DNA of 39,701 nt from Candidatus Yonathbacteria bacterium RIFOXYC2_FULL_47_9 (GTDB taxonomy: Bacteria; Patescibacteriota; Minisyncoccia; Phycocordibacterales; UBA1550): NCBI GenBank assembly GCA_001825115.1, contig MHUY01000016.1:13792-53492 (forward strand), written 5' to 3'. How positions within the stretch are numbered: the stretch's first letter is position 1; every line of letters begins with the position of its first letter. A model generated the notes under the pieces. It did no database searches. It saw only the letters and a list, made by a program, of their open reading frames with translations, and was not told where the DNA came from. Shown here one piece after another: positions 7,357 to 37,863 of this stretch. The translations under genes and the position numbers were made by a program.

Positions 7357-7428
7357 TCCGCGGTAGCTCAGTGGTAGAGCAAGCGACTGTTAATCGCTTG
7401 GTCGTAGGTTCGATCCCTACCCGCGGAG
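7357..7428 (+). tRNA. tRNA-Asn (anticodon GTT), no encoded CCA
   Basis: Hand-folded cloverleaf. Acceptor TCCGCGG/CCGCGGA; D arm GCTC-AGTGGTA-GAGC; anticodon arm AGCGA-CTGTTAA-TCGCT; variable loop TGGTC; T arm GTAGG-TTCGATC-CCTAC; discriminator G. Confidence 0.9.
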
Positions 7429-9105
7429 CATAGTAGAAAAAACAGGCTTTAAACGGTCTGTTTTTTCATTTAAGCCTTTAAATACAACGTAGTTTTTAGG
7501 TTCGAACTCTCCGTTTATTGCCTTCGCACATTTGATGCCTTCTACGAGTTTGTTTACCGCAATATCGTTATAAATACTAAGGTTTTCATCATCCCAGACT
7601 AGGTTCGAACCTAGTCTTGAGAGTATGTTTCTTTTTGCCTGCATACTCCCCTTCTCAAGTACTTCTTTCGTACAAAGAGTAAGGTCTACAATCTCGTTCA
7701 TCCGAGAAAACCAATCAACCCTACCTTTTCCATCACCAGCAACTGCATACTGTTTATTCAGCGCCAGTAAATCATCTTTGTATTCACCGTCAGTAATCTG
7801 TTCGTCGCGAAGCATGGCTCGCAAGCGAGTCTTCTTTGCTTCATATTTACTTTTATCTGCCTCCACCTTTTGCGCGATAAACACACTGTCGTTAATTTCC
7901 TTATCCTTTAATTCAACAATGTATTTTTTTGACCACTCAGCAAACTCCTTCGAAAAAGTCAGGTTGTCGTCGACAAACTTCACTAACTCTTCAGTAATCC
8001 TTGCCTCAGAAAGTGCTTTGTACGGTTGAGCAGCCTTCTTTTTCTTTACATTGTAATAGTAGGTAAAAGTGAGGTACTTTGGATTTTCCAGCTTTTCTAT
8101 TTCCCTCTCGCATTTAGGGCAATGGGTTCTATCCAAGTATGCAAACTTGTTCTTGCAATCACATATAACCTGGCACTTTACATCTTGCCCCATAAACGCT
8201 CCCTCGTCTGACTGAACAAACCCAGCGAAGGTCGTCTCATGACGTTGAGATTTTGGTATGTTTTTCTTCGAAAGAAGAGCTCTAACTTTCTCGTGCTCGC
8301 CCTCGGTAATAAGTCGAGGGAGCGAAGAATCAAGCTCGTATCGTTCACCGCCGTATGTGAAAAATCCAGCATAAGTAGGGTCCTTCAAAATCTCATATAT
8401 TCGCGAGAGAGTAATCGGTGCACCGCCAATTCTCTTTCTCTTCACCGTGGTCAATTTTAGCTCTTTTATGGCATACCTATGCAGCTTGCCTGCCGAGTAT
8501 GTCCCCGTTAAAAACATTTCAAACAACGTTTTTATTGCCTTGAGCCTCAGGTCATCAACAATCCACCTACGATTGCCCTTTTCCTCTGTTTTATCATTCA
8601 AGAACCCTAGTGTGGCAACTCCGTGCGGTACACCCATACTTGCCTTTTTCGTCTGCCCTCGCTTTACGTTCACCGAGAGGTCTTTAACAAACTGTTTCCC
8701 CTGACTGAACTCGACGGACATCACAATCACGTTATCCCAAGGGTAAAAAACTTTATCATGCGTGATGATTGCTTTTATAACCCCAGAACTCAGAAGGTCG
8801 ATGATCTGTCCCCCTTCGGTCATATTTCTTGCAAGGCGATCGAGCTTCCAGCAAACAATGGAGTCAATCTTTCCTGAAAAAACCATTTCCATCATTCTTG
8901 AAAACTCTTTTCGCTCGTGCTCTTTTTTAGCAGACTTACTTTCCTTAAAAACTTCAACAAACTTTGGGAGATTGTAGAAACTGGAAATCCTCGCTGCTTC
9001 ATCAATCTGACTATCAACAGAAAGCATCTGACGATCCTCCGCCTCCGAAGACTTACGGTTGTAATTCCCCACCTTCAACTTCGTGAAATCTATAGTGTTG
9101 TTCAT
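7417..9105 (-). CDS. Large serine recombinase (integrase)
   Basis: The N-terminal resolvase-type catalytic motif is YNRKSSEAEDRQ...SVDSQ. A central recombinase domain follows, then a zinc ribbon (CDCKNKFAYLDRTHCPKCE) and a coiled-coil tail. At about 560 aa it has the large serine recombinase architecture. Position 9111 is TTG and the ATG is at 9105. The stop codon (7417-7419) lies inside the tRNA T-stem. Confidence 0.85.
   Translation of the reverse strand: MNNTIDFTKLKVGNYNRKSSEAEDRQMLSVDSQIDEAARISSFYNLPKFVEVFKESKSAKKEHERKEFSRMMEMVFSGKIDSIVCWKLDRLARNMTEGGQIIDLLSSGVIKAIITHDKVFYPWDNVIVMSVEFSQGKQFVKDLSVNVKRGQTKKASMGVPHGVATLGFLNDKTEEKGNRRWIVDDLRLKAIKTLFEMFLTGTYSAGKLHRYAIKELKLTTVKRKRIGGAPITLSRIYEILKDPTYAGFFTYGGERYELDSSLPRLITEGEHEKVRALLSKKNIPKSQRHETTFAGFVQSDEGAFMGQDVKCQVICDCKNKFAYLDRTHCPKCEREIEKLENPKYLTFTYYYNVKKKKAAQPYKALSEARITEELVKFVDDNLTFSKEFAEWSKKYIVELKDKEINDSVFIAQKVEADKSKYEAKKTRLRAMLRDEQITDGEYKDDLLALNKQYAVAGDGKGRVDWFSRMNEIVDLTLCTKEVLEKGSMQAKRNILSRLGSNLVWDDENLSIYNDIAVNKLVEGIKCAKAINGEFEPKNYVVFKGLNEKTDRLKPVFSTMLRG
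7437..7466 (+). terminator. Hairpin plus T-run after tRNA-Asn
   Basis: AAAAAACAG (7437-7445) pairs with CTGTTTTTT (7458-7466). It lies inside the last codons of the recombinase ORF on the other strand. Confidence 0.45.
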
Positions 9106-30326: not shown

Positions 30327-30370
30327 GCGAGGATTATACCATAATACTCGCTGTCTATTTACTATACTCG

Positions 30371-30475
30371 TCAATTATCACCCTTTGAACTTCATCCCAG
30401 GTGCGGAGCCAGCAAAATCACCCATATTTATATGGGTGATTTTCTTTACCACACTTAGGAGATCGAACCTACGGC
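30371..30475. repeat. tRNA-Asn 3'-half-like palindromic intergenic repeat, copy A
   Basis: The copy is 105 nt and has 9 mismatches to copy B by hand alignment. Its core is GAACTTCATCCCAGGTGCGGAGC (30387-30409). The central hairpin is AAAATCACCCATA/TATGGGTGATTTT (30414-30443). On the minus strand, 30461-30473 reads CGTAGGTTCGATC, identical to tRNA-Asn 7403-7415. Confidence 0.8.
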
Positions 30476-31333: not shown

Positions 31334-31852
31334 TTATGCAGATACGTCTGCATCGGGGGCTTTTTCTTTTTGTCTCTCCGTAGAAAACTTATGGTAATGT
31401 TCATTCAAAAAAGTTATCTCTGTATTCTTATTTTTTAACAAGATAGAGCATTTCTTTTCGTCAGGAGAAACAACGCAATCAATCGCTTTGCTATTTTGCA
31501 AAAACTCCACCAAGCACCCGAAGTCACCATCTCCTGTTACCAAGATGCAGGAAGTAAATGCTTTTGTATAAAAATCTGATACGGTTTTAAGAACGAGCTC
31601 GGCATCACAATTACCTTTTATTGTTCCTCCAAATGATACCGTTTGCTTGAAGACAAGAATGAAGCCACATTCCTGGAGATGTTCATAGAATGATGTCCTG
31701 CTGGGCACAAGACCGATAAAAAGGTAGACGTTCGCAGGGCTGTATTTTTGACGGAGCCACCCACGAAACTTTTTATAATCTATTTCAAAACCTAGCTCTT
31801 TTGCAGAGCGATAAAGATTATTCCCATCGATGTAGATGTTTACTTTATTCAT
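31334..31852 (-). CDS. NYN-domain (LabA/DUF88-like, PIN-related) protein
   Basis: VNIYIDGNNLY near the N-terminus and LVTGDGDFGCLVEFL are the characteristic acidic NYN motifs. Confidence 0.8.
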   Translation of the reverse strand: MNKVNIYIDGNNLYRSAKELGFEIDYKKFRGWLRQKYSPANVYLFIGLVPSRTSFYEHLQECGFILVFKQTVSFGGTIKGNCDAELVLKTVSDFYTKAFTSCILVTGDGDFGCLVEFLQNSKAIDCVVSPDEKKCSILLKNKNTEITFLNEHYHKFSTERQKEKAPDADVSA

Positions 31853-31888
31853 AAAACTATTCTAACACACAAAATTTAATTGTTTTCC

Positions 31889-31993
31889 TCAATTATTACC
31901 CTCTGAACTTCATCCCAGGTGCGGAGCCAGCAAAATTACCCATATTTATATGGGTAATTTTTGTTACGACACTTAGGAGCTCGAACCTAAGGC
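31889..31993. repeat. tRNA-Asn 3'-half-like palindromic intergenic repeat, copy B
   Basis: The core is at 31905-31927. The hairpin is AAAATTACCCATA/TATGGGTAATTTT (31932-31961). The two hairpin differences from copy A (C to T, G to A) are compensatory. The T-arm-like CTTAGG-AGCTCGAA-CCTAAG is at 31972-31991. Confidence 0.8.
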
Positions 31994-32053: not shown

Positions 32054-32662
32054 ATGAAATCAGGAACACTATTGCTTACCTCGATAGGACTATCTTCGCC
32101 AAATGTACTCAGTAGATTTCTTGAGATAGTTGGGGACACAAAGAATAAGCAGGTGGCGATTATCACGACTGCAGCCGAGGGGAAAGAAGTCAATAAGTAT
32201 TCTCAACTAGCCCACAAGCAGTTTGTAGACTTAGGCTTTTCAGGCGTAGATTTTGTTGACCTAGAAGCAGATCCGACGAAAGACCTTTCCCCATACGGTG
32301 TTATTTATGTTTGTGGTGGTAACACTTTTAAACTCCTTAAGTTTGCTCTAACAGCAAACTTTAAAAATTCCGTTGAATCATTGCTAAAAATGGGAGGTGT
32401 ATATATTGGCGTAAGCGCTGGAAGTATCATTGTTGGTCCATCGGTGAAAATTGCTGATGAAGTTCAGCCCGATCCCAACGAGGTTGGTATTAGTGATTTT
32501 TCAGGGCTTGGTATAATCAAAGAAATAGTCCTGCCACATTATTCTCCTGAGATTGAAGAGCAGGTAAAGATATTCGAAAATAAACACAATGTTATCATTG
32601 ATAGAATAGACAATTCCCAAGCTATTTTGGTGCAAGAAGGATATAAAACAATTATTGAATAA
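32054..32662 (+). CDS. Peptidase S51 (peptidase E-like) family protein
   Basis: VCGGNTFKLL and the nucleophile elbow GVSAGSII, plus a downstream LPHY, fit the S51 Ser-His layout. Confidence 0.75.
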   Translation: MKSGTLLLTSIGLSSPNVLSRFLEIVGDTKNKQVAIITTAAEGKEVNKYSQLAHKQFVDLGFSGVDFVDLEADPTKDLSPYGVIYVCGGNTFKLLKFALTANFKNSVESLLKMGGVYIGVSAGSIIVGPSVKIADEVQPDPNEVGISDFSGLGIIKEIVLPHYSPEIEEQVKIFENKHNVIIDRIDNSQAILVQEGYKTIIE

Positions 32663-32666
32663 AAAA

Positions 32667-32694
32667 ATAGAGGCATACAAAAGTATGCCTCTAT
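32667..32694. terminator. Bidirectional hairpin between convergent genes
   Basis: ATAGAGGCATAC, an AAAA loop, then GTATGCCTCTAT form a perfect 12-bp stem. It is preceded by an A-run and contains the stop codon of ORF 32691..33473. Confidence 0.6.
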
Positions 32695-33473
32695 AAAGCT
32701 AACAACTTACTAATTTCACTGATAATCACACTCACTTCTTCCATATCTTTTGGTGTGAACCGTGAAAGACGGAGAGCGAGCTTATATACAGGTAAACTGG
32801 AAGACTCAAGGAGGTGTGCCTGCTCAGCAAGCGATCTAAATCCTCGGAAATAGCAACGACTCCGAGCAAACGCGAGCCTGGTCAGCGAAGCCGTGATATC
32901 TGAGATGCATAAATTAAACTCAATCGAGCCCACACTTTCGTGAAGTTTCCCGAGTGTATTTAATTTCTGTTTAATCTCTTCTACACATAGTTCGCTGATT
33001 CCCTGTGAAAGCGATAGTGGGTATGGGATAATCAACTCCTTAATTTTGGAATGAATCCTTTTTGGATCATGCAGAGATTCTGCCGTGGCAAGATCCCCAC
33101 ACAACGCTTCAGGAACCCAATATCCAGTAGCCCAAGAACGATGTTGTCCATCGAGATCTTTCCTTTCTGTCCATTTTTGAATTTGTCCGACAAGCACAGA
33201 GGAGTTGCATACCGCAACCCCACCGCAACCTGTCGGTAACTCAAAACGAACACTATCATCACACACGGATAAATTTCCATTAGGCAAACAGTCTTTCAAG
33301 ATAGACTCGATAGTGGGGCCATATTTGTAAATATCCCCACCATCACATCCCACCAATAGATCAACGTGATTTTTTGGCAAATTCCTGTTTAACCCAACTA
33401 GCAAAAGTATTTCCATTCCTTGCATGTTGCGTAGTGCATGAGATAGCTCCGAAACAATCTGGCCTTTTTTCAT
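32691..33473 (-). CDS. Unknown protein, last gene of the AlaRS-like/radical SAM operon (nucleotidyltransferase fold only a weak guess)
   Basis: A 260-aa ORF. Its start overlaps the upstream stop as ATGA, preceded by AAAGGAG. LLLVGLNRNLPKNHVDLLVGCDGGD vaguely resembles an hG[GS]...D-x-D nucleotidyltransferase segment, but the motif is degenerate. Confidence 0.6.
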   Translation of the reverse strand: MKKGQIVSELSHALRNMQGMEILLLVGLNRNLPKNHVDLLVGCDGGDIYKYGPTIESILKDCLPNGNLSVCDDSVRFELPTGCGGVAVCNSSVLVGQIQKWTERKDLDGQHRSWATGYWVPEALCGDLATAESLHDPKRIHSKIKELIIPYPLSLSQGISELCVEEIKQKLNTLGKLHESVGSIEFNLCISDITASLTRLAFARSRCYFRGFRSLAEQAHLLESSSLPVYKLALRLSRFTPKDMEEVSVIISEISKLLAL

Positions 33474-34600
33474 ACCGACTCCTTTCTGTCAGAACATTCA
33501 TCAAGCTCAATGAGAACCGCTGAATATCCAAACGTAGATGCAAGATATTTGATATCATGTTCGTTAAGCAATCCTGTTTTTTGAGATTTGAGTTTTATGT
33601 ACTCCCTCCTCCCTCGTACAAGACTTTGTTCGAACTTTGATACCTCTTTCGTAAGTACCTGCAGAACGGTGTTCCGAGTAGCTTCTACTGAAACCCAGTA
33701 ATTGATTGATATCACACAGAACTCCTTGAATGGCAGCGAAATCTGCTGGCAAGTTACGTACGCTTCCCGAATGATTTTTCGGAGCACATATTCTGCCGCC
33801 TTATTGCCTGGGACAAGCCCTTGAGAAACCAACAAAGTTGACGCCTTACCTAAATCAGCAAGCCGACATACTTTTGTGTAGCTATGGTTTGAAGAACATT
33901 TCTCAAGAGATTGCACAACCTGTTTCCATAAGGAATTTTCATAGTTGTTGCTACAGTGTTCAATTACCGTAACAATGCGATCAATACTTGCCCCAGAATC
34001 TGCTGCGATTTTCTCCATTGGAGAACAAAAAAGAGTGTTGCCCTGGAATTGTGTAAAAACTAAATTCCAGAGCTCAGTCAATTTCATTGTTTCTGGATTT
34101 TGCCACACAATTTCTGTTCGCAATCCGCACAGTGTTTTAGAAGGAGTAAAAGCCACATTCTCGTTATTCGAGATTGTTTCAACCCCTAACCCATCCCAAA
34201 CTTTTTGTGATACATCATCTTGCGGATGAACCGTTGCTAAAAGGTTGCGCGAATTTATCCCCGCGCAATCAGTTAAAAATTGCCAAGCACTTTCAATCAT
34301 CAAGCTCTTTACCGCCTGCTCGTCATTTTCGTAAAGTGAAAAATGGCCAAGCATGTCGAACGCAAGATGATGTCTTCCAGAAATACCAATCTTTTCCCAT
34401 CCATCAGTTCTCAAGCAGGTCTGAATCGAGGATATTCGTGGAACGTTCGCGGTTAACCCGCGAGCTATCGCGTCCTCGAATACAACCCCGCCTGAGATAT
34501 TAAACAGAAGTTTCTGGTTGAGACTAATGATTGGGTCACTTTCTTTCCATCGGAAACCGTAGTTTCCAAAATGGTTTTTGATATCATTTCGCAATTTCAT
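33470..34600 (-). CDS. Stand-alone AlaRS-like protein (aminoacylation plus tRNA-recognition region only; no editing or C-Ala domains)
   Basis: Block-by-block resemblance to AlaRS: GRHHLAFDMLGHFSL (RHHTFFEMLGNFSF), LTELWNLVFTQFQ (IEIWNIVFMQFN), ADSGASIDRIVTVIEHCSNNYE ([22 protein letters not shown]) and AAEYVLRKIIREA (RGYVLRRIIRRA). The ATG at 34600 gives MKLRNDIKNHFGNYGF. Confidence 0.8.
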   Translation of the reverse strand: MKLRNDIKNHFGNYGFRWKESDPIISLNQKLLFNISGGVVFEDAIARGLTANVPRISSIQTCLRTDGWEKIGISGRHHLAFDMLGHFSLYENDEQAVKSLMIESAWQFLTDCAGINSRNLLATVHPQDDVSQKVWDGLGVETISNNENVAFTPSKTLCGLRTEIVWQNPETMKLTELWNLVFTQFQGNTLFCSPMEKIAADSGASIDRIVTVIEHCSNNYENSLWKQVVQSLEKCSSNHSYTKVCRLADLGKASTLLVSQGLVPGNKAAEYVLRKIIREAYVTCQQISLPFKEFCVISINYWVSVEATRNTVLQVLTKEVSKFEQSLVRGRREYIKLKSQKTGLLNEHDIKYLASTFGYSAVLIELDECSDRKESV

Positions 34601-35823
34601 GGAGAACCTCCTTTCGCTAGATGTTTGAATACCGTCTGTCTGATGGCATAAGTGAATGTGCTCATATCTGGATGAGTGACAAGTCCATAATTTTGATCCC
34701 ACCTGACAACGTGAGCAGAAATACCCAAATTGTCTAGGATGATCTGCGCGTGTTCAGTTGTCATGCTACAAGAGGATTTTTGAGCACAGATTTGTCGCTG
34801 AGCGAGGGGGCAATGAGATGACTCACATTCCTCTCGTGCAAAGATTTGGACCGAAGTAATACTTGGTAATCCGAGCATCTTTGTTAATGCGCATGAAGAC
34901 TTGAGGTACACGGGGACTCCAGGGAAGTGCTCCTCGCTTAAAGAAAGAATGGTATCCACTAAATCTTTAGGCAAGGACTTCACATTGTCGTCACGAGGAA
35001 TGTTTGGCATAGGGAGCTTATGAATTTCCACAAGACCATTTTCTATGCCTTCAGTCCAACGTAACCCTCCGGGGACAATCATGTCAATAACGTTTCCATA
35101 ATGTTTCTTAACCCACAGCATCATCATCTCAATTCTGTCCGGATTTCCACTCCACTCTGGAACAATCGGGCGCATATACCATGCAATAATAACTCCCGCT
35201 TCCTTTGCTTCTTCGACACTAAGAAAGCGATTATTACGAACAGGCTCAATCGTGTCAGGATTATCTGCCCAACATATCGAAATCATGAGCCCGCGAGTTG
35301 CTCTGGTAATTCTTGCCAGATCGAGTTTCCTCCCTTTAGGGATTCCACCCTTAGTGACAATCCAGAAAGGGTTTTTGAATCCCCTCCTCACGAACGATTC
35401 CATAATCTCGAAAGTGCTGTCAGTCACCTGTCCTGGGGCAAATGGCTCCGTACTCGCTGTCCCAATGCTGATCACCGTTTCATCAACAATGAAAAACGGA
35501 TGCTTCACTAATTCATCAATGATCTGATCAACAGTAAAAGAATTGCGCCGCTGAGGCTTCCTCGGCATCATTCCGTGTTCGACAAGATCTTGATGCGTGC
35601 CCTGCACATGACAATATCTGCATTGCCATGCACAACCAGCCCACAAGTCTATACTCAGTGAGTTGTTGGACACACTTACCGACGAAAGAGGATGTTTGCA
35701 GTCGGGAACAAGAACTCCGTATGTATATTCACGCAAAGAGAACTCTTGCCCAGTAGTCATTCCCTTAATTTGAACGATGGGCTCCGAATTTGCAGCCGTA
35801 AAGTAGTCCCGTTTAGATTTCAT
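34597..35823 (-). CDS. Radical SAM protein, SPL/COG1533-like
   Basis: The CxxxCxxC motif sits in SIDLWAGCAWQCRYCHV, the context typical of the spore-photoproduct-lyase-like radical SAM group. The protein is 408 aa with a C-terminal Cys cluster (CESSHCPLAQRQICAQKSSC). Confidence 0.75.
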   Translation of the reverse strand: MKSKRDYFTAANSEPIVQIKGMTTGQEFSLREYTYGVLVPDCKHPLSSVSVSNNSLSIDLWAGCAWQCRYCHVQGTHQDLVEHGMMPRKPQRRNSFTVDQIIDELVKHPFFIVDETVISIGTASTEPFAPGQVTDSTFEIMESFVRRGFKNPFWIVTKGGIPKGRKLDLARITRATRGLMISICWADNPDTIEPVRNNRFLSVEEAKEAGVIIAWYMRPIVPEWSGNPDRIEMMMLWVKKHYGNVIDMIVPGGLRWTEGIENGLVEIHKLPMPNIPRDDNVKSLPKDLVDTILSLSEEHFPGVPVYLKSSCALTKMLGLPSITSVQIFAREECESSHCPLAQRQICAQKSSCSMTTEHAQIILDNLGISAHVVRWDQNYGLVTHPDMSTFTYAIRQTVFKHLAKGGSP

Positions 35824-36569
35824 ATGGCTGCTCCTTTCAAGTAGTTGATATTCTGAACTATTTGGTCTGTAGTTGTCATGCCGACAACTACAGATGTTTC
35901 TAGTTTCAGAGTACGCGTTAAGATTTCCATCGCCGATACGTCAGCTTGTCGTTCGTCGCTCATCAAAATCTTTCCTTGCAGAAAGAGACTTCTGAGTAAT
36001 ACTTCCTTCCCTAACCTCTTTAGCTGTGGGAGCTGATAAACTATCCACTGCTCGTGAAGATTGTACGGTGCTTCAATTACATCAATATGTTCAAGAACAC
36101 TTTCATCAATGTAATCAGAAAAACCATTGGGAAGAGAGATGCCAACTTTCCTAACGACACCAATTTCTTTTAGCTCATTTAGGGCTTTAAGAATATGGGT
36201 AGCATTTTTTTGCCATAATGGTATCCAGTTGTGTAGCAATAAGATATCAATCGAATTTCGCCCGAGCCTACTTAAAGACTGCTCTGCGCTTCGATGAATG
36301 TTGTCACGTGAGTAACATTTATCGATAGGCATTTTGGTGTCGGGCTTCAAGATTGCAGGGATCTTTGTGAGGATCACCGCTTCTTGCGACAGACATGCTC
36401 CGAGTATTTTCTCGACATTTCCTTGCCCATAGACTGCTGCTGTGTCAAACTTGTAGATTCCGTGAGATAGTGCGAGCTGAATCAAATTCTCAATCTGTGT
36501 ATTCGTAAGATCTTTGAACTGCCCAGATAATTGCCATGTGCCAAAATAGAGGCGATCGTTCCATTTCAT
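35820..36569 (-). CDS. Aldo/keto reductase family protein (short form)
   Basis: FGTWQLSG...FDTAAVYGQGNVEKILG carries the Asp and Tyr of the tetrad. LTKIP carries the Lys and IDILLLHNW the His. AAGGAGG lies 7 nt upstream of the ATG. Confidence 0.85.
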   Translation of the reverse strand: MKWNDRLYFGTWQLSGQFKDLTNTQIENLIQLALSHGIYKFDTAAVYGQGNVEKILGACLSQEAVILTKIPAILKPDTKMPIDKCYSRDNIHRSAEQSLSRLGRNSIDILLLHNWIPLWQKNATHILKALNELKEIGVVRKVGISLPNGFSDYIDESVLEHIDVIEAPYNLHEQWIVYQLPQLKRLGKEVLLRSLFLQGKILMSDERQADVSAMEILTRTLKLETSVVVGMTTTDQIVQNINYLKGAAI

Positions 36570-36733
36570 GATATTTCCTCCTTGTAATGTCTAAAGTTGT
36601 AAATGAACAAATGGTTCGTCTGCCATAAATCTACAACATACATCGCCGCTCGTCAAGCTTTGACTAAAATCGCAATGTGTATTACTGTGCAGTAAGTCTC
36701 GATCTTTAAAATCTACGATAAGGAGTATATGAA

Positions 36734-37657
36734 ATGAAAATTATTGCCGTGAGTTCTTCTACGTATTCACAAATTGAAGCAAGTCTATGGAAAGATGACA
36801 GATTTCAGCCGGTCGGTGACCACAAGGTAAAGATAGAGCTGGATGATGGCTCAATCGTGGAAGCAGGTGTTTTTGAGGTAACGAAGGGTCACAAAAAAGA
36901 ATTTCATGCATGCATATCCACGCAGGCCGGCTGTAAATTCAAATGCTCGTTTTGTTCTTCTGGTGCTAGGGGTTTTGAGAGAGATTTATCTTGTGATGAA
37001 ATCCTCGAAGAAATTTCAATTCTGGCAAAGTTGGCAAAGATAGAATCATTTGATCGCCTGATGTATATGGGAATAGGTGAGCCGATGGATAATTTTGACA
37101 ATGTTGTTGGAAGCATACAACAACTTCTTGAAATTAATCCCGCGTATGTTGGCAGAATTTCTTTAGCAACAATTGGTATACTGCCAAAGTTGCATAAATT
37201 AGCATTGCTCAAGCTTCCCTTAAGAAGGATCTGGGTGTCTCTGCATGCAGCCTCTGACGAAAAAAGGTTGCAGATTATGCCCATCAGCAAAGTATATAAA
37301 GCTAAGGAACTTGTAGTCGCAGCAAAAGCCTTTGCTGAAGTCTCTGGTACAGAAACATGGCTTAACTATATGATCTTTCAAGGCTTCAATGATTCTCTGG
37401 AAGATGCTTCGAAGTTGGTTGAGTTGCTTAAAGACACCGAAGACGATTTGTCTGTGGTAATCACTGTTCCCAATGGCGAGAGGTCTGGCTATGTTGGGGG
37501 CAGTTTGGAAGATGTGCATAGATTCCAAAATTATCTCATAGAGCTGGGAATGAAGAATCGTACAGAGCACTTTTTTTCTGTCGGACGCTCTTCAAACGCG
37601 GGCTGTGGGGAATTCGTTTTCTACCCCAGCAGTACAAAAATAGCTGTTTGTAGTTAA
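36734..37657 (+). CDS. RlmN/Cfr-family radical SAM methyl synthase, N-terminally truncated
   Basis: HACISTQAGCKFKCSFCSSGARGFERDLSCDEI aligns to [33 protein letters not shown]. Other matching blocks are MGIGEPMDNFDNVV, ISLATIGILPKL, VSLHAASDE and a C-terminal NAGCGEF (AACGQL). AAGGAG lies 8 nt upstream of the ATG. Confidence 0.85.
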   Translation: MKIIAVSSSTYSQIEASLWKDDRFQPVGDHKVKIELDDGSIVEAGVFEVTKGHKKEFHACISTQAGCKFKCSFCSSGARGFERDLSCDEILEEISILAKLAKIESFDRLMYMGIGEPMDNFDNVVGSIQQLLEINPAYVGRISLATIGILPKLHKLALLKLPLRRIWVSLHAASDEKRLQIMPISKVYKAKELVVAAKAFAEVSGTETWLNYMIFQGFNDSLEDASKLVELLKDTEDDLSVVITVPNGERSGYVGGSLEDVHRFQNYLIELGMKNRTEHFFSVGRSSNAGCGEFVFYPSSTKIAVCS

Positions 37658-37684
37658 ATAAAATTGTATATATTTTAGAACTGA

Positions 37685-37713
37685 GGGGTTCACTGTGTGG
37701 ACCCCTTTTTTTT
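37685..37713 (+). terminator. Rho-independent terminator after the RlmN/Cfr-like gene
   Basis: GGGGTTCA, a CTGTG loop, then TGGACCCC, followed by TTTTTTTT. Confidence 0.65.
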
Positions 37714-37745
37714 ATTACCTCTCTTCCTTGCTTAGTGGTTTTCTT

Positions 37746-37863
37746 CAATAATTATTTGCTGAACTTCATCCCAGGTGCGGAGCAATAAAAGAAATGGCCC
37801 TCTTCTGAGGGTCTTTTCTTTTATCTAGCTTCCGCGAGTGTGGGGACCGAACCGTAGGCTCCC
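37746..37863. repeat. tRNA-Asn 3'-half-like repeat, copy C (diverged outside the core)
   Basis: Bases 37759-37783 (CTGAACTTCATCCCAGGTGCGGAGC) are identical over 25 nt to copy B 31903-31927. A different hairpin plus T-run follows at 37796-37820. A minus-strand GGTTCGGTCCCC T-loop-like segment lies at about 37842-37855. Confidence 0.7.

Follow-up and report, generated by a model that had tools for sequence, protein, structure and literature searches.

We analysed a 39,701-nucleotide stretch of contig MHUY01000016.1 from Candidatus Yonathbacteria bacterium RIFOXYC2_FULL_47_9 (the window; positions count from its first letter), in which a compact operon joins a radical S-adenosylmethionine (SAM) enzyme to a truncated paralog of alanyl-tRNA synthetase (AlaRS). 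The same contig has been recovered from several groundwater assemblies, and the radical SAM protein it encodes is 100% identical to one recorded for this genome. Four open reading frames (ORFs) on the minus strand encode, from first to last, a 249-residue aldo/keto reductase (AKR; 35820-36569), a 408-residue radical SAM enzyme (rSAM; 34597-35823), a 376-residue AlaRS paralog with an ATG start that we call AlaL (33470-34600), and a 260-residue nucleotidyltransferase (NTase)-like protein, NTL (32691-33473). An earlier reading of this DNA from its letters alone (the sequence-only reading) had described these four ORFs as chained by three ATGA stop/start overlaps, each preceded by AAAGGAG. Both features are confirmed in the sequence, with AAAGGAG lying 5-7 nt upstream of each internal ATG, and the AKR gene has a Shine-Dalgarno sequence of its own, AAGGAGG. 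Four-nucleotide overlaps of the same kind occur in two related loci (L009 and L007). The operon ends in an intrinsic terminator (32667-32694, minus strand; a 12-bp stem with 5 GC pairs, then a T-run) that it has in common with a convergent plus-strand gene for a 202-residue S51 peptidase (32054-32662). At its other end, a divergent intergenic region confirmed at 164 bp (36570-36733) separates it from a plus-strand gene for a short, 307-residue RlmN/Cfr-like methyl synthase (36734-37657), which is followed by a second terminator (37683-37707). A consensus scan places a promoter-like TTGACG-17-TAGATT ahead of the operon (36656-36628, minus strand), the count of such sites being no higher than in shuffled sequences. 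The central claim of the sequence-only reading, that these genes form a co-translated and undescribed functional unit, is supported.

No precursor-peptide ORF is present in the operon, which is too tightly overlapped to leave room for one. Since it also lacks a LanB-like gene, a pathway to a ribosomally synthesized and post-translationally modified peptide, or one of the type that uses peptide aminoacyl-tRNA ligases (PEARLs), was rejected. Neither the window nor any of 15 related loci yielded a T-box or a riboswitch.

AlaL matches the AlaRS family PF01411 (E = 4.9e-46) over profile positions 5-401 of 552. This coverage bears out its first description as a 376-residue fragment for aminoacylation and tRNA recognition: the aminoacylation domain and part of the tRNA-recognition domain are present, and neither an editing domain (no PF07973) nor a C-Ala domain was found. 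Against TIGR00344 (alaS) the protein scores 159 bits, below the cutoff of 457 bits for a canonical alanine--tRNA ligase. We retrieved 113 homologues of AlaL and evaluated residue conservation across 103 family members, in which R64, H77, H78, E163, E176, W178, N179, V181, D201, G203 and R208 are invariant. This set includes the equivalents of Escherichia coli R69, N212, V214, D235, G237 and the motif-3 Arg. The position of E. coli W170 is occupied by Ala or Thr, and the motif-2 loop is four residues shorter. Judged from these residues, the adenylation site appears intact. AlaL and AlaL2, a second AlaRS-like protein encoded in some related loci, cover the same domains and are thus paralogs rather than complementary halves; the possibility that AlaL is half of a split housekeeping AlaRS was rejected on this ground.

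The AKR matches PF00248 (E = 3.7e-30; 105 bits against a cutoff of 24), with the profile match confined to the N-terminal 145 residues of this short protein, and its D42/Y47/K69/H113 tetrad aligns with those of the solved AKRs L-galactose dehydrogenase, IolS and GSP69. Profile match and alignment together bear out the D, Y, K and H positions recognized earlier. The rSAM carries a CX3CX2C cluster motif (C64/C68/C71) and four additional cysteines (C311/C333/C338/C346), all of them invariant; 257 homologues were retrieved. No other protein of the cassette is as well conserved, with about 80% identity where AlaL shows about 62%. Its match to PF04055 is weak (19.5 bits), as are its NCBIfam matches, to the Rv2578c family (E = 2.5e-6) and to PA0069. 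With a structural model of high predicted local distance difference test score (pLDDT 93), Foldseek returned generic radical SAM barrels alone (template-modelling (TM) scores of at most 0.38), matching NifB, SkfB, BioB and LipA at probability 1.0. The cluster motif and the partial TIM-barrel fold of the model place the protein in the radical SAM superfamily. A sequence profile search of the PDB gave nothing below E = 1, and spore photoproduct lyase (SPL) is absent from the top 50 Foldseek matches; given these results and the weak NCBIfam matches, the 'SPL-type/COG1533' label attached to the rSAM in the sequence-only reading is not upheld. The enzyme has no close characterised relative, and its family is unnamed in Pfam and NCBIfam.

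A search of plasmids for rSAM relatives returned only distant ones, at 22-25% identity, in two contexts (L139:6625-10122 and L140:8923-11218). The relative on a Streptomyces plasmid (22% identity) shares with the rSAM the C-terminal CxxxxC...C motif and adjoins genes for a class II aldolase and a MurA paralog, whereas the one on an Agrobacterium vitis plasmid resides in a defence island together with a 3'-5' exonuclease and an AAA ATPase. The proximity of the Streptomyces relative to a MurA paralog recalls the pairing of NikO/PolA with NikJ/PolH, a likeness of gene context only. No relatives were found in viral contigs, and no phage origin was seen.

NTL of the window has no match in Pfam or NCBIfam, and the sequence-only reading could not place it; some of its homologues carry PF13228/DUF4037. 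Structure prediction followed by a fold search does place it. The model (pLDDT 88.8) finds ANT(4') as its top Foldseek match (6nmk/1kan; E = 1e-6, TM-score 0.57-0.60), with further matches to the NTase-like protein 3c18 and to LinB, and, as modelled, NTL has the two-domain kanamycin nucleotidyltransferase (KNTase) fold. Anantharaman et al. group DUF4037 with the aminoglycoside-NTase C-terminal domain (PMC3710099). In a motif comparison across lineages, NTL of the window departs from the signature hG[GS]-x9-13-DxD, reading VGL...HVDLL, with D38, D72 and D73 conserved. The motif VGS...DxD...DD is intact in most lineages, including the loci L027 and L013 (Thermoactinomyces) and the fused forms from the gut; in the Paceibacteria clade of the window it reads VGL...K/H-x-D, and in Saccharibacteria it is still more decayed. 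Gut Firmicutes and Bacteroidales encode NTL and the AKR as one protein of about 485-493 residues with NTL at the N terminus, a fusion that ties both activities together.

The S51 peptidase matches PF03575 (E = 1.4e-26; 93.9 bits against a cutoff of 23.9), and an alignment with Lmo0363 and PepE locates Ser121 in GVSAGS and His162 in LPHY.

To follow the cassette beyond the window, loci were drawn from the neighbourhoods of AlaL and rSAM homologues and from a scan with the rSAM alignment, with one genome per GTDB species, and all were then mapped by tblastn, which yielded 42 distinct loci. For a subset of 25, flanks of 5 kb or more are available on each side. The AKR gene is present, adjacent to that of the rSAM, in 41 of the 42, NTL in 37, a peptidase in 35 and a synthetase-like gene in 38; for the well-flanked subset, the corresponding counts are 24, 24, 22 and 23. 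The hosts include Patescibacteria (Paceibacteria-type groups, Saccharibacteria, Dojkabacteria and Peribacteria), gut Firmicutes (metagenome-assembled genomes (MAGs) of Bacilli, Clostridia, Lachnospiraceae and Erysipelotrichaceae), Muribaculaceae, Bacteroidaceae, Paludibacteraceae and a Rickettsiales MAG, as well as two cultured organisms, Thermoactinomyces sp. DSM 45892 and Priestia megaterium. The cluster of the former spans about 42.7-51.6 kb of FNPL01000003.1, and that of the latter is on JARRUG010000135.1. The neighbourhood is thus conserved in several phyla, and none of the outcomes that the sequence-only reading had named against itself (a neighbourhood seen in no other genome, a split housekeeping AlaRS, or ORFs from unrelated families) was obtained. 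The peptidase is of the S51 type in 27 loci and of the M55 type in one, and in 8 loci an S66 enzyme of the MccF family (MccF/LdcA) takes the slot of S51. The S51 peptidase is a core component of the cassette.

The synthetase-like gene is the variable part. AlaL itself occurs in 25 loci; AlaL2, a further AlaRS paralog that is near-canonical (430-454 residues; 341 bits against PF01411), occurs in 15, among them loci of Muribaculaceae, and is absent from the window. At 7 loci the slot holds a class I LysRS-like protein, either of 504-506 residues or of 771-780 residues with a Metallophos phosphoesterase fusion, sometimes joined by a near-canonical copy of 528-557 residues. One locus (L018) has a pair of class II synthetases of the D/K/N type, of 435 residues with an OB domain and of 303 residues with the core only, and another (L041) combines MetRS with a truncated class I protein. 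A class II core of the amino acid:carrier-protein (aa:CP) ligase type, an ATP-grasp ligase and a condensation-like protein fill the slot in Thermoactinomyces, Priestia and a Lachnospiraceae MAG; the first two also have a carrier protein and a major facilitator superfamily (MFS) transporter. The amino-acid-activating component is therefore swapped around a fixed rSAM-AKR-NTL core. NUDIX, MazG or Metallophos genes, found in or beside several cassettes, hint at nucleotide intermediates.

The long LysRS-like proteins belong to cassettes of gut Firmicutes and Bacteroidales (L048:11196-13511, L049:4649-6988 and L050:12833-15175). A C-terminal calcineurin-like (Metallophos) fusion is seen directly in the first and follows for the other two from length and similarity, and all three genes lie beside one for a protein of about 331-346 residues that has no Pfam match and is possibly aminotransferase-like. 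In a Zambryskibacteria locus (L025:9998-11215), only the rSAM is left of the cassette, split into ORFs of 152 and 228 residues; this locus looks like the remnant of a decaying cassette.

The divergent RlmN-like gene stands apart from this core. Its product scores 156 bits against TIGR00048 (RlmN; cutoff 290) and 122 against Cfr (cutoff 530), and the match begins at model position 79, leaving an N-terminal domain of roughly 60-80 residues missing. Residues C60, C67/C71/C74 and C291 are kept across the short subfamily, C60 and C291 being the mechanistic cysteines that correspond to E. coli C118 and C355. The protein falls into a separate subfamily of about 300 residues, with about 16 representative clusters at 157-281 bits, beyond which come canonical RlmN/Cfr proteins that score no more than 150 bits. 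Its original designation as an RlmN/Cfr-type methyl synthase holds for the motif, for both cysteines and for the best family matches, but sits uneasily with scores below the cutoffs and with the missing N-terminal domain. Only two of the 42 loci contain the gene, the window and L027, where a homologue of 47% identity lies, in a different arrangement, beside a cassette with a LysRS-like ligase; from matching lengths alone, a 7101-bp contig from the Joint Genome Institute (JGI) probably also has the RlmN-like gene beside the cassette. A subfamily member of 45% identity (L137:8001-8942) has no cassette near it; its neighbours are transposases of the insertion-sequence type, an APH-family kinase gene and a giant NB-ARC/WD40 gene, a context typical of a mobile resistance-type gene. 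For two further members the neighbourhood is not visible, one lying at a contig edge (L138) and the other on a short contig (L136), and 80 metagenome loci of relatives with 31-36% identity hold no cassette genes. A role of the RlmN-like gene as a core part was rejected on these counts; because it is seldom found beside the cassette and occurs elsewhere without cassette genes, it is best regarded as an occasional lineage-specific accessory. The GNAT gene near the cassette is limited to contigs of this species, and its proposed part in MccE-like immunity is not supported.

Three direct repeats on the plus strand delimit the module in the window: copy A (30358-30475), copy B (31876-31993) and copy C (37732-37790), with match positions at 30385, 31903 and 37759 (3 copies against 0 expected by chance). 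The genes from S51 through RlmN-like lie between copies B and C, which are 5856 bp apart from start to start, in line with the repeat-bracketed cassette of about 5.8 kb proposed earlier. The repeat family, of about 59-108 nt, is confined among the loci compared to contigs of this species. Copies A and B lie directly upstream of minus-strand SppA-like and NYN genes and, because they precede genes, the family may represent a promoter or 5' leader present in several copies. In a Candidatus Zambryskiibacteriota locus (L018:9573-16088), the whole cassette is flanked exactly by inverted repeats of 427 nt with 100% identity and adjoins four tRNA genes and a 550-residue ORF judged from its N-terminal sequence to be serine-recombinase-like; the arrangement could reflect a module capable of inversion or movement, or else an artefact of assembly. 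Given the repeat brackets in the window and the inverted repeats and recombinase-like ORF of L018, the cassette looks like a discrete mobile unit, and we take it to have spread horizontally.

The surroundings are accessory DNA with type I and type IV restriction systems, as first described: type I restriction-modification (R-M), GmrSD-type and Fic genes flank the region. The GmrSD-type type IV restriction, Fic and HsdM genes are located by Pfam matches on an identical contig (window 26361-28502 and 21574-24710), and the NYN-domain gene (31334-31852) matches the PADLOC NYN model. Elsewhere, L013 of Thermoactinomyces adjoins a prophage and type I R-M, L011 adjoins NB-ARC/TPR and caspase-like genes, and L012 adjoins toxin-antitoxin (TA) modules and an Apyc1-like gene. 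Between the prophage lysis module and the cassette of L013 lie group II intron domains (RF02001 and RF01998; L013:4852-5176). Further afield, the window contains a full-length match to the LOOT RNA (RF03000; 10887-11007, plus strand; 86 bits against a gathering threshold of 46) and a tRNA-Asn (7357-7429).

Because a fixed core is combined with an interchangeable ligase, often in a near-canonical/divergent pair, and with a dedicated peptidase, we read the operon and the S51 gene as a biosynthesis and self-protection cassette for an aminoacylated, plausibly nucleoside- or nucleotide-derived antimetabolite, an interpretation to which we give even chances. In the case of the window, the amino acid would probably be alanine. 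From the gene families, the conservation of active sites and of the cassette, and the interchange of synthetases, all of which are observed, we infer each chemical step and the nature of the product as follows. The rSAM, through 5'-deoxyadenosyl radical chemistry and its extra four-cysteine site, and the NAD(P)H-dependent AKR would build a conserved scaffold. NTL, which looks competent in most lineages, could nucleotidylate the hydroxyl made by the AKR; in the clade of the window, where its active site has decayed, it would probably serve substrate binding only. AlaL would activate alanine or a near-cognate small amino acid and transfer it to the scaffold, either directly from Ala-AMP or via tRNA-Ala, and direct ligation from Ala-AMP is conceivable since AlaL, unlike the AcmF protein of ascamycin biosynthesis, keeps its adenylation residues. 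The cytoplasmic S51 peptidase would hydrolyse the aminoacyl bond for immunity or recycling, as do MccF for microcin C and AcmE for ascamycin. By the same analogy, the S66 enzymes in 8 loci suggest immunity of the microcin C type, as they belong to the MccF/LdcA family. The RlmN-like protein could be an optional add-on that C-methylates the adenine of the product or methylates rRNA or tRNA for self-resistance.

In this generalised form, synthesis of an aminoacyl-nucleoside-type metabolite is the best supported of the three hypotheses offered by the sequence-only reading, in view of the core S51 peptidase, the S66 enzymes in 8 loci and AlaL2 in 15. The Cfr-like gene and the GNAT, to which it had assigned parts, are not conserved components, with the former in two loci and the latter in this species only. 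The other two proposals, an RNA-directed modification module and the hypermodification of nucleic-acid bases, are disfavoured by variants that exchange the synthetase paralog for a carrier protein, a ligase, a condensation-like protein and an MFS transporter.

Several points weigh against the antimetabolite interpretation. No product or activity is known for any cassette member, and neither an MFS transporter nor another exporter was found in the cassette of the window or in other Patescibacteria loci. The nucleoside scaffold is suggested solely by accessory phosphohydrolases, by the NTase fold and by a putative analogy with the NikO/NikJ-like context of a distant rSAM relative. The NTase motif has decayed in exactly the clade of the window, which makes a universal nucleotidylation step doubtful. 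If the cytoplasmic peptidase takes the amino acid off again, the final step of biosynthesis would be reversed unless the enzyme were regulated or specific for a processed form. Finally, the setting of several loci in defence islands fits a defence role equally well.

A more ambitious version of the same scheme, which we hold to be possible though on balance improbable, sees in the cassettes a mobile, combinatorial antibiotic family. The rSAM-AKR-NTL trio would build a nucleoside-like warhead that the swapped paralogs, of Ala, Lys, Asp/Asn/Lys, Met or carrier-protein type, turn into aminoacyl-adenylate mimics directed against the matching synthetases; the near-canonical paralog would then either charge tRNA or stand in as a resistant copy of the target, with the S51 or S66 enzyme conferring MccF-like immunity.

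RNA hypermodification, the rival that survives best, strikes us as unlikely. Here the trio would modify a nucleoside of tRNA or rRNA, the paralog would recognise its cognate tRNA and aminoacylate the modified base, much as GluQRS/YadB does with the queuosine of tRNA-Asp, and the RlmN-like enzyme would methylate. The retention of part of the tRNA-recognition domain and of an intact-looking adenylation site in AlaL is consistent with such a role, a variable synthetase type would fit different target tRNAs, and an RlmN-family enzyme lies beside the cassette again in L027. However, the carrier-protein, aa:CP-ligase, ATP-grasp, condensation-like and MFS sets of Firmicutes do not bind tRNA, the 303-residue class II core of L018 has no anticodon-binding domain, and the NTL fold resembles small-molecule O-nucleotidyltransferases. 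A dedicated peptidase is also hard to place in RNA modification, and the distribution of the cassette is patchy and island-like.

Next in order comes anti-phage defence, to which we likewise assign a low probability. On infection, the cassette would make a toxic or signalling nucleotide derivative in the manner of viperin, and the peptidase would be the off-switch or antidote. The genomic settings described above speak for it (type I R-M, GmrSD, Fic and NYN genes in the window; prophage and R-M in L013; NB-ARC/TPR and caspase-like genes in L011; TA and Apyc1-like neighbours in L012; the Agrobacterium defence island of a distant rSAM relative), as does the behaviour of the cassette, which resembles that of a discrete module bracketed by repeats. 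Genomic islands are, however, a common place for accessory biosynthetic clusters too, no sensor or regulator is conserved, and the MFS transporter and carrier-protein machinery of some variants point to a secreted metabolite. Nor do the core proteins have a convincing counterpart among described defence systems: PADLOC-DB 2.0 gave no match for AKR, rSAM, AlaL, NTL or S51 and a match of only 38 residues, over the radical SAM motif, for the RlmN-like protein (E = 7e-4), and, as noted, viral contigs held no relatives.

Patescibacteria depend on salvage, and the cassette might instead import and dismantle an aminoacylated compound from the environment, with the peptidase acting first, followed by the reductase and the rSAM, and the synthetase paralog as a regulatory or re-charging element. 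We consider this very unlikely. A core peptidase, and an MFS protein that is possibly an importer, would suit salvage, but the adenylation site of AlaL and the ATP-grasp and condensation-like ligases are bond-forming rather than catabolic, and pairs of near-canonical and truncated synthetases fit biosynthesis.

Still less credence goes to a protein modification of the EpmA/EpmB kind, in which rSAM and AKR would make an unusual amino acid that the paralog ligates to a protein. EpmA/EpmB, which act on elongation factor P (EF-P), do pair a truncated synthetase paralog with a radical SAM enzyme, and the core-only D/K/N paralog of L018 has an EpmA-like architecture. The rSAM, however, is unrelated to the KamA/EpmB type, with no such match in Foldseek or NCBIfam; a single protein target would hardly call for four or five synthetase families; no gene for a substrate protein is conserved; and the peptidase and NTase-like protein would go unexplained. 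The trivial explanation, that AlaL is half of a split housekeeping AlaRS and its adjacency to the other genes fortuitous, agrees with the PF01411 match alone and is already contradicted by the shared domains of AlaL and the 430-residue AlaL2, the changed Trp170 position, the TIGR00344 score of 159 bits against 457, the same adjacency in 42 loci across phyla and the other synthetase families in the same slot, so that we find it scarcely credible.

To our knowledge, only a few Streptomyces pathways have been known to employ synthetase paralogs in metabolite biosynthesis. Across dozens of uncultured lineages, a single three-enzyme core is seen here together with members of at least four synthetase families or with a carrier-protein ligase, and the swap of synthetases would amount to a natural experiment in changing the amino-acid 'address' on one scaffold. 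If the antimetabolite interpretation is true, genome-reduced Patescibacteria and gut anaerobes would possess a chemical weapon or defence; if the products form an antibiotic family, a specialised-metabolite pathway would have spread through Patescibacteria and would also be present in gut anaerobes. Neither the rSAM family with its four-cysteine motif nor the short RlmN-like subfamily has been characterised. Since the cassette occurs in the cultured Thermoactinomyces sp. DSM 45892 and Priestia megaterium, the hypothesis is directly testable.

Individual components resemble known systems to differing degrees. Like RlmN and Cfr, which act on A2503 of 23S rRNA, the RlmN-like protein has the radical SAM motif and both mechanistic cysteines; unlike them, it belongs to a rare subfamily of about 300 residues, has no N-terminal domain and fails to reach the family cutoffs. 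NTL shares with ANT(4'), LinB and DUF4037 proteins a two-domain fold in which a Pol-beta NTase domain precedes a helical C-terminal domain that is HEPN-like. It differs from ANT(4') and LinB in having only about 10% identity and in the loss, in the clade of the window, of hG[GS] and of the first Asp of DxD, and, whereas those are stand-alone resistance genes, NTL is encoded in an operon of biosynthetic type. Synthetase paralogs serve as tailoring enzymes in several systems, among them the IleRS-like SbzA (SB-203208), the aa:CP ligases of atypical-SerRS type, GluQRS and EpmA. In these, as proposed for the cassette, synthetase cores aminoacylate something other than the 3' end of tRNA, and the Firmicute variants resemble the aa:CP ligases further in pairing a carrier-protein-ligase-type core with a carrier protein; yet none of these systems has an rSAM-AKR-NTase-like core or an interchange among four or five synthetase families. 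With microcin C immunity (MccF, MccE), the window has in common a cytoplasmic serine peptidase alongside a predicted aminoacyl-conjugate pathway, and a GNAT nearby. In contrast to microcin C, neither an MccB-type adenylyltransferase nor a precursor peptide is encoded in the operon or its flanks, and, unlike MccE, the GNAT is not conserved outside this species.

By analogy, the closest precedent is the AcmD/AcmF/AcmE module of ascamycin biosynthesis, reportedly the subject of Zheng et al., ACS Catal 2024. In Streptomyces sp. 80H647, the canonical-type AlaRS AcmD charges tRNA-Ala, the truncated AlaRS-like AcmF moves Ala onto a nucleoside sulfamate, and the hydrolase AcmE removes it (PMC12945691). 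AlaL is, like AcmF, truncated to aminoacylation and tRNA-recognition domains; 15 of the 42 cassette loci pair an AlaRS-like protein with a near-canonical copy; and a hydrolase predicted to remove the amino acid is encoded alongside. AcmF has lost residues for the activation of ATP and alanine (N219Q, D232E; PMC12945691), whereas AlaL, set against this description, keeps the equivalents N179 and D201, which are invariant in its family. The hydrolase of the cassette is an S51 or S66 peptidase rather than a secreted alpha/beta hydrolase such as AcmE, and its putative scaffold enzymes (rSAM, AKR and the KNTase-fold protein) have no counterpart in ascamycin biosynthesis as the review describes it. 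The cassette of the window also has no AcmD-like copy, and across the cassette family the synthetase type is interchangeable. In the literature searched, we found no description of the cassette, the review of ascamycin being the sole precedent; together with the PADLOC result, this agrees with the earlier statement that no described pathway or defence system has this gene set. Aminoacylated metabolites that depend on synthetase paralogs were thus known already, and what the cassette adds to them is a core that is itself uncharacterised and around which synthetase families are swapped in an unusual, modular way.

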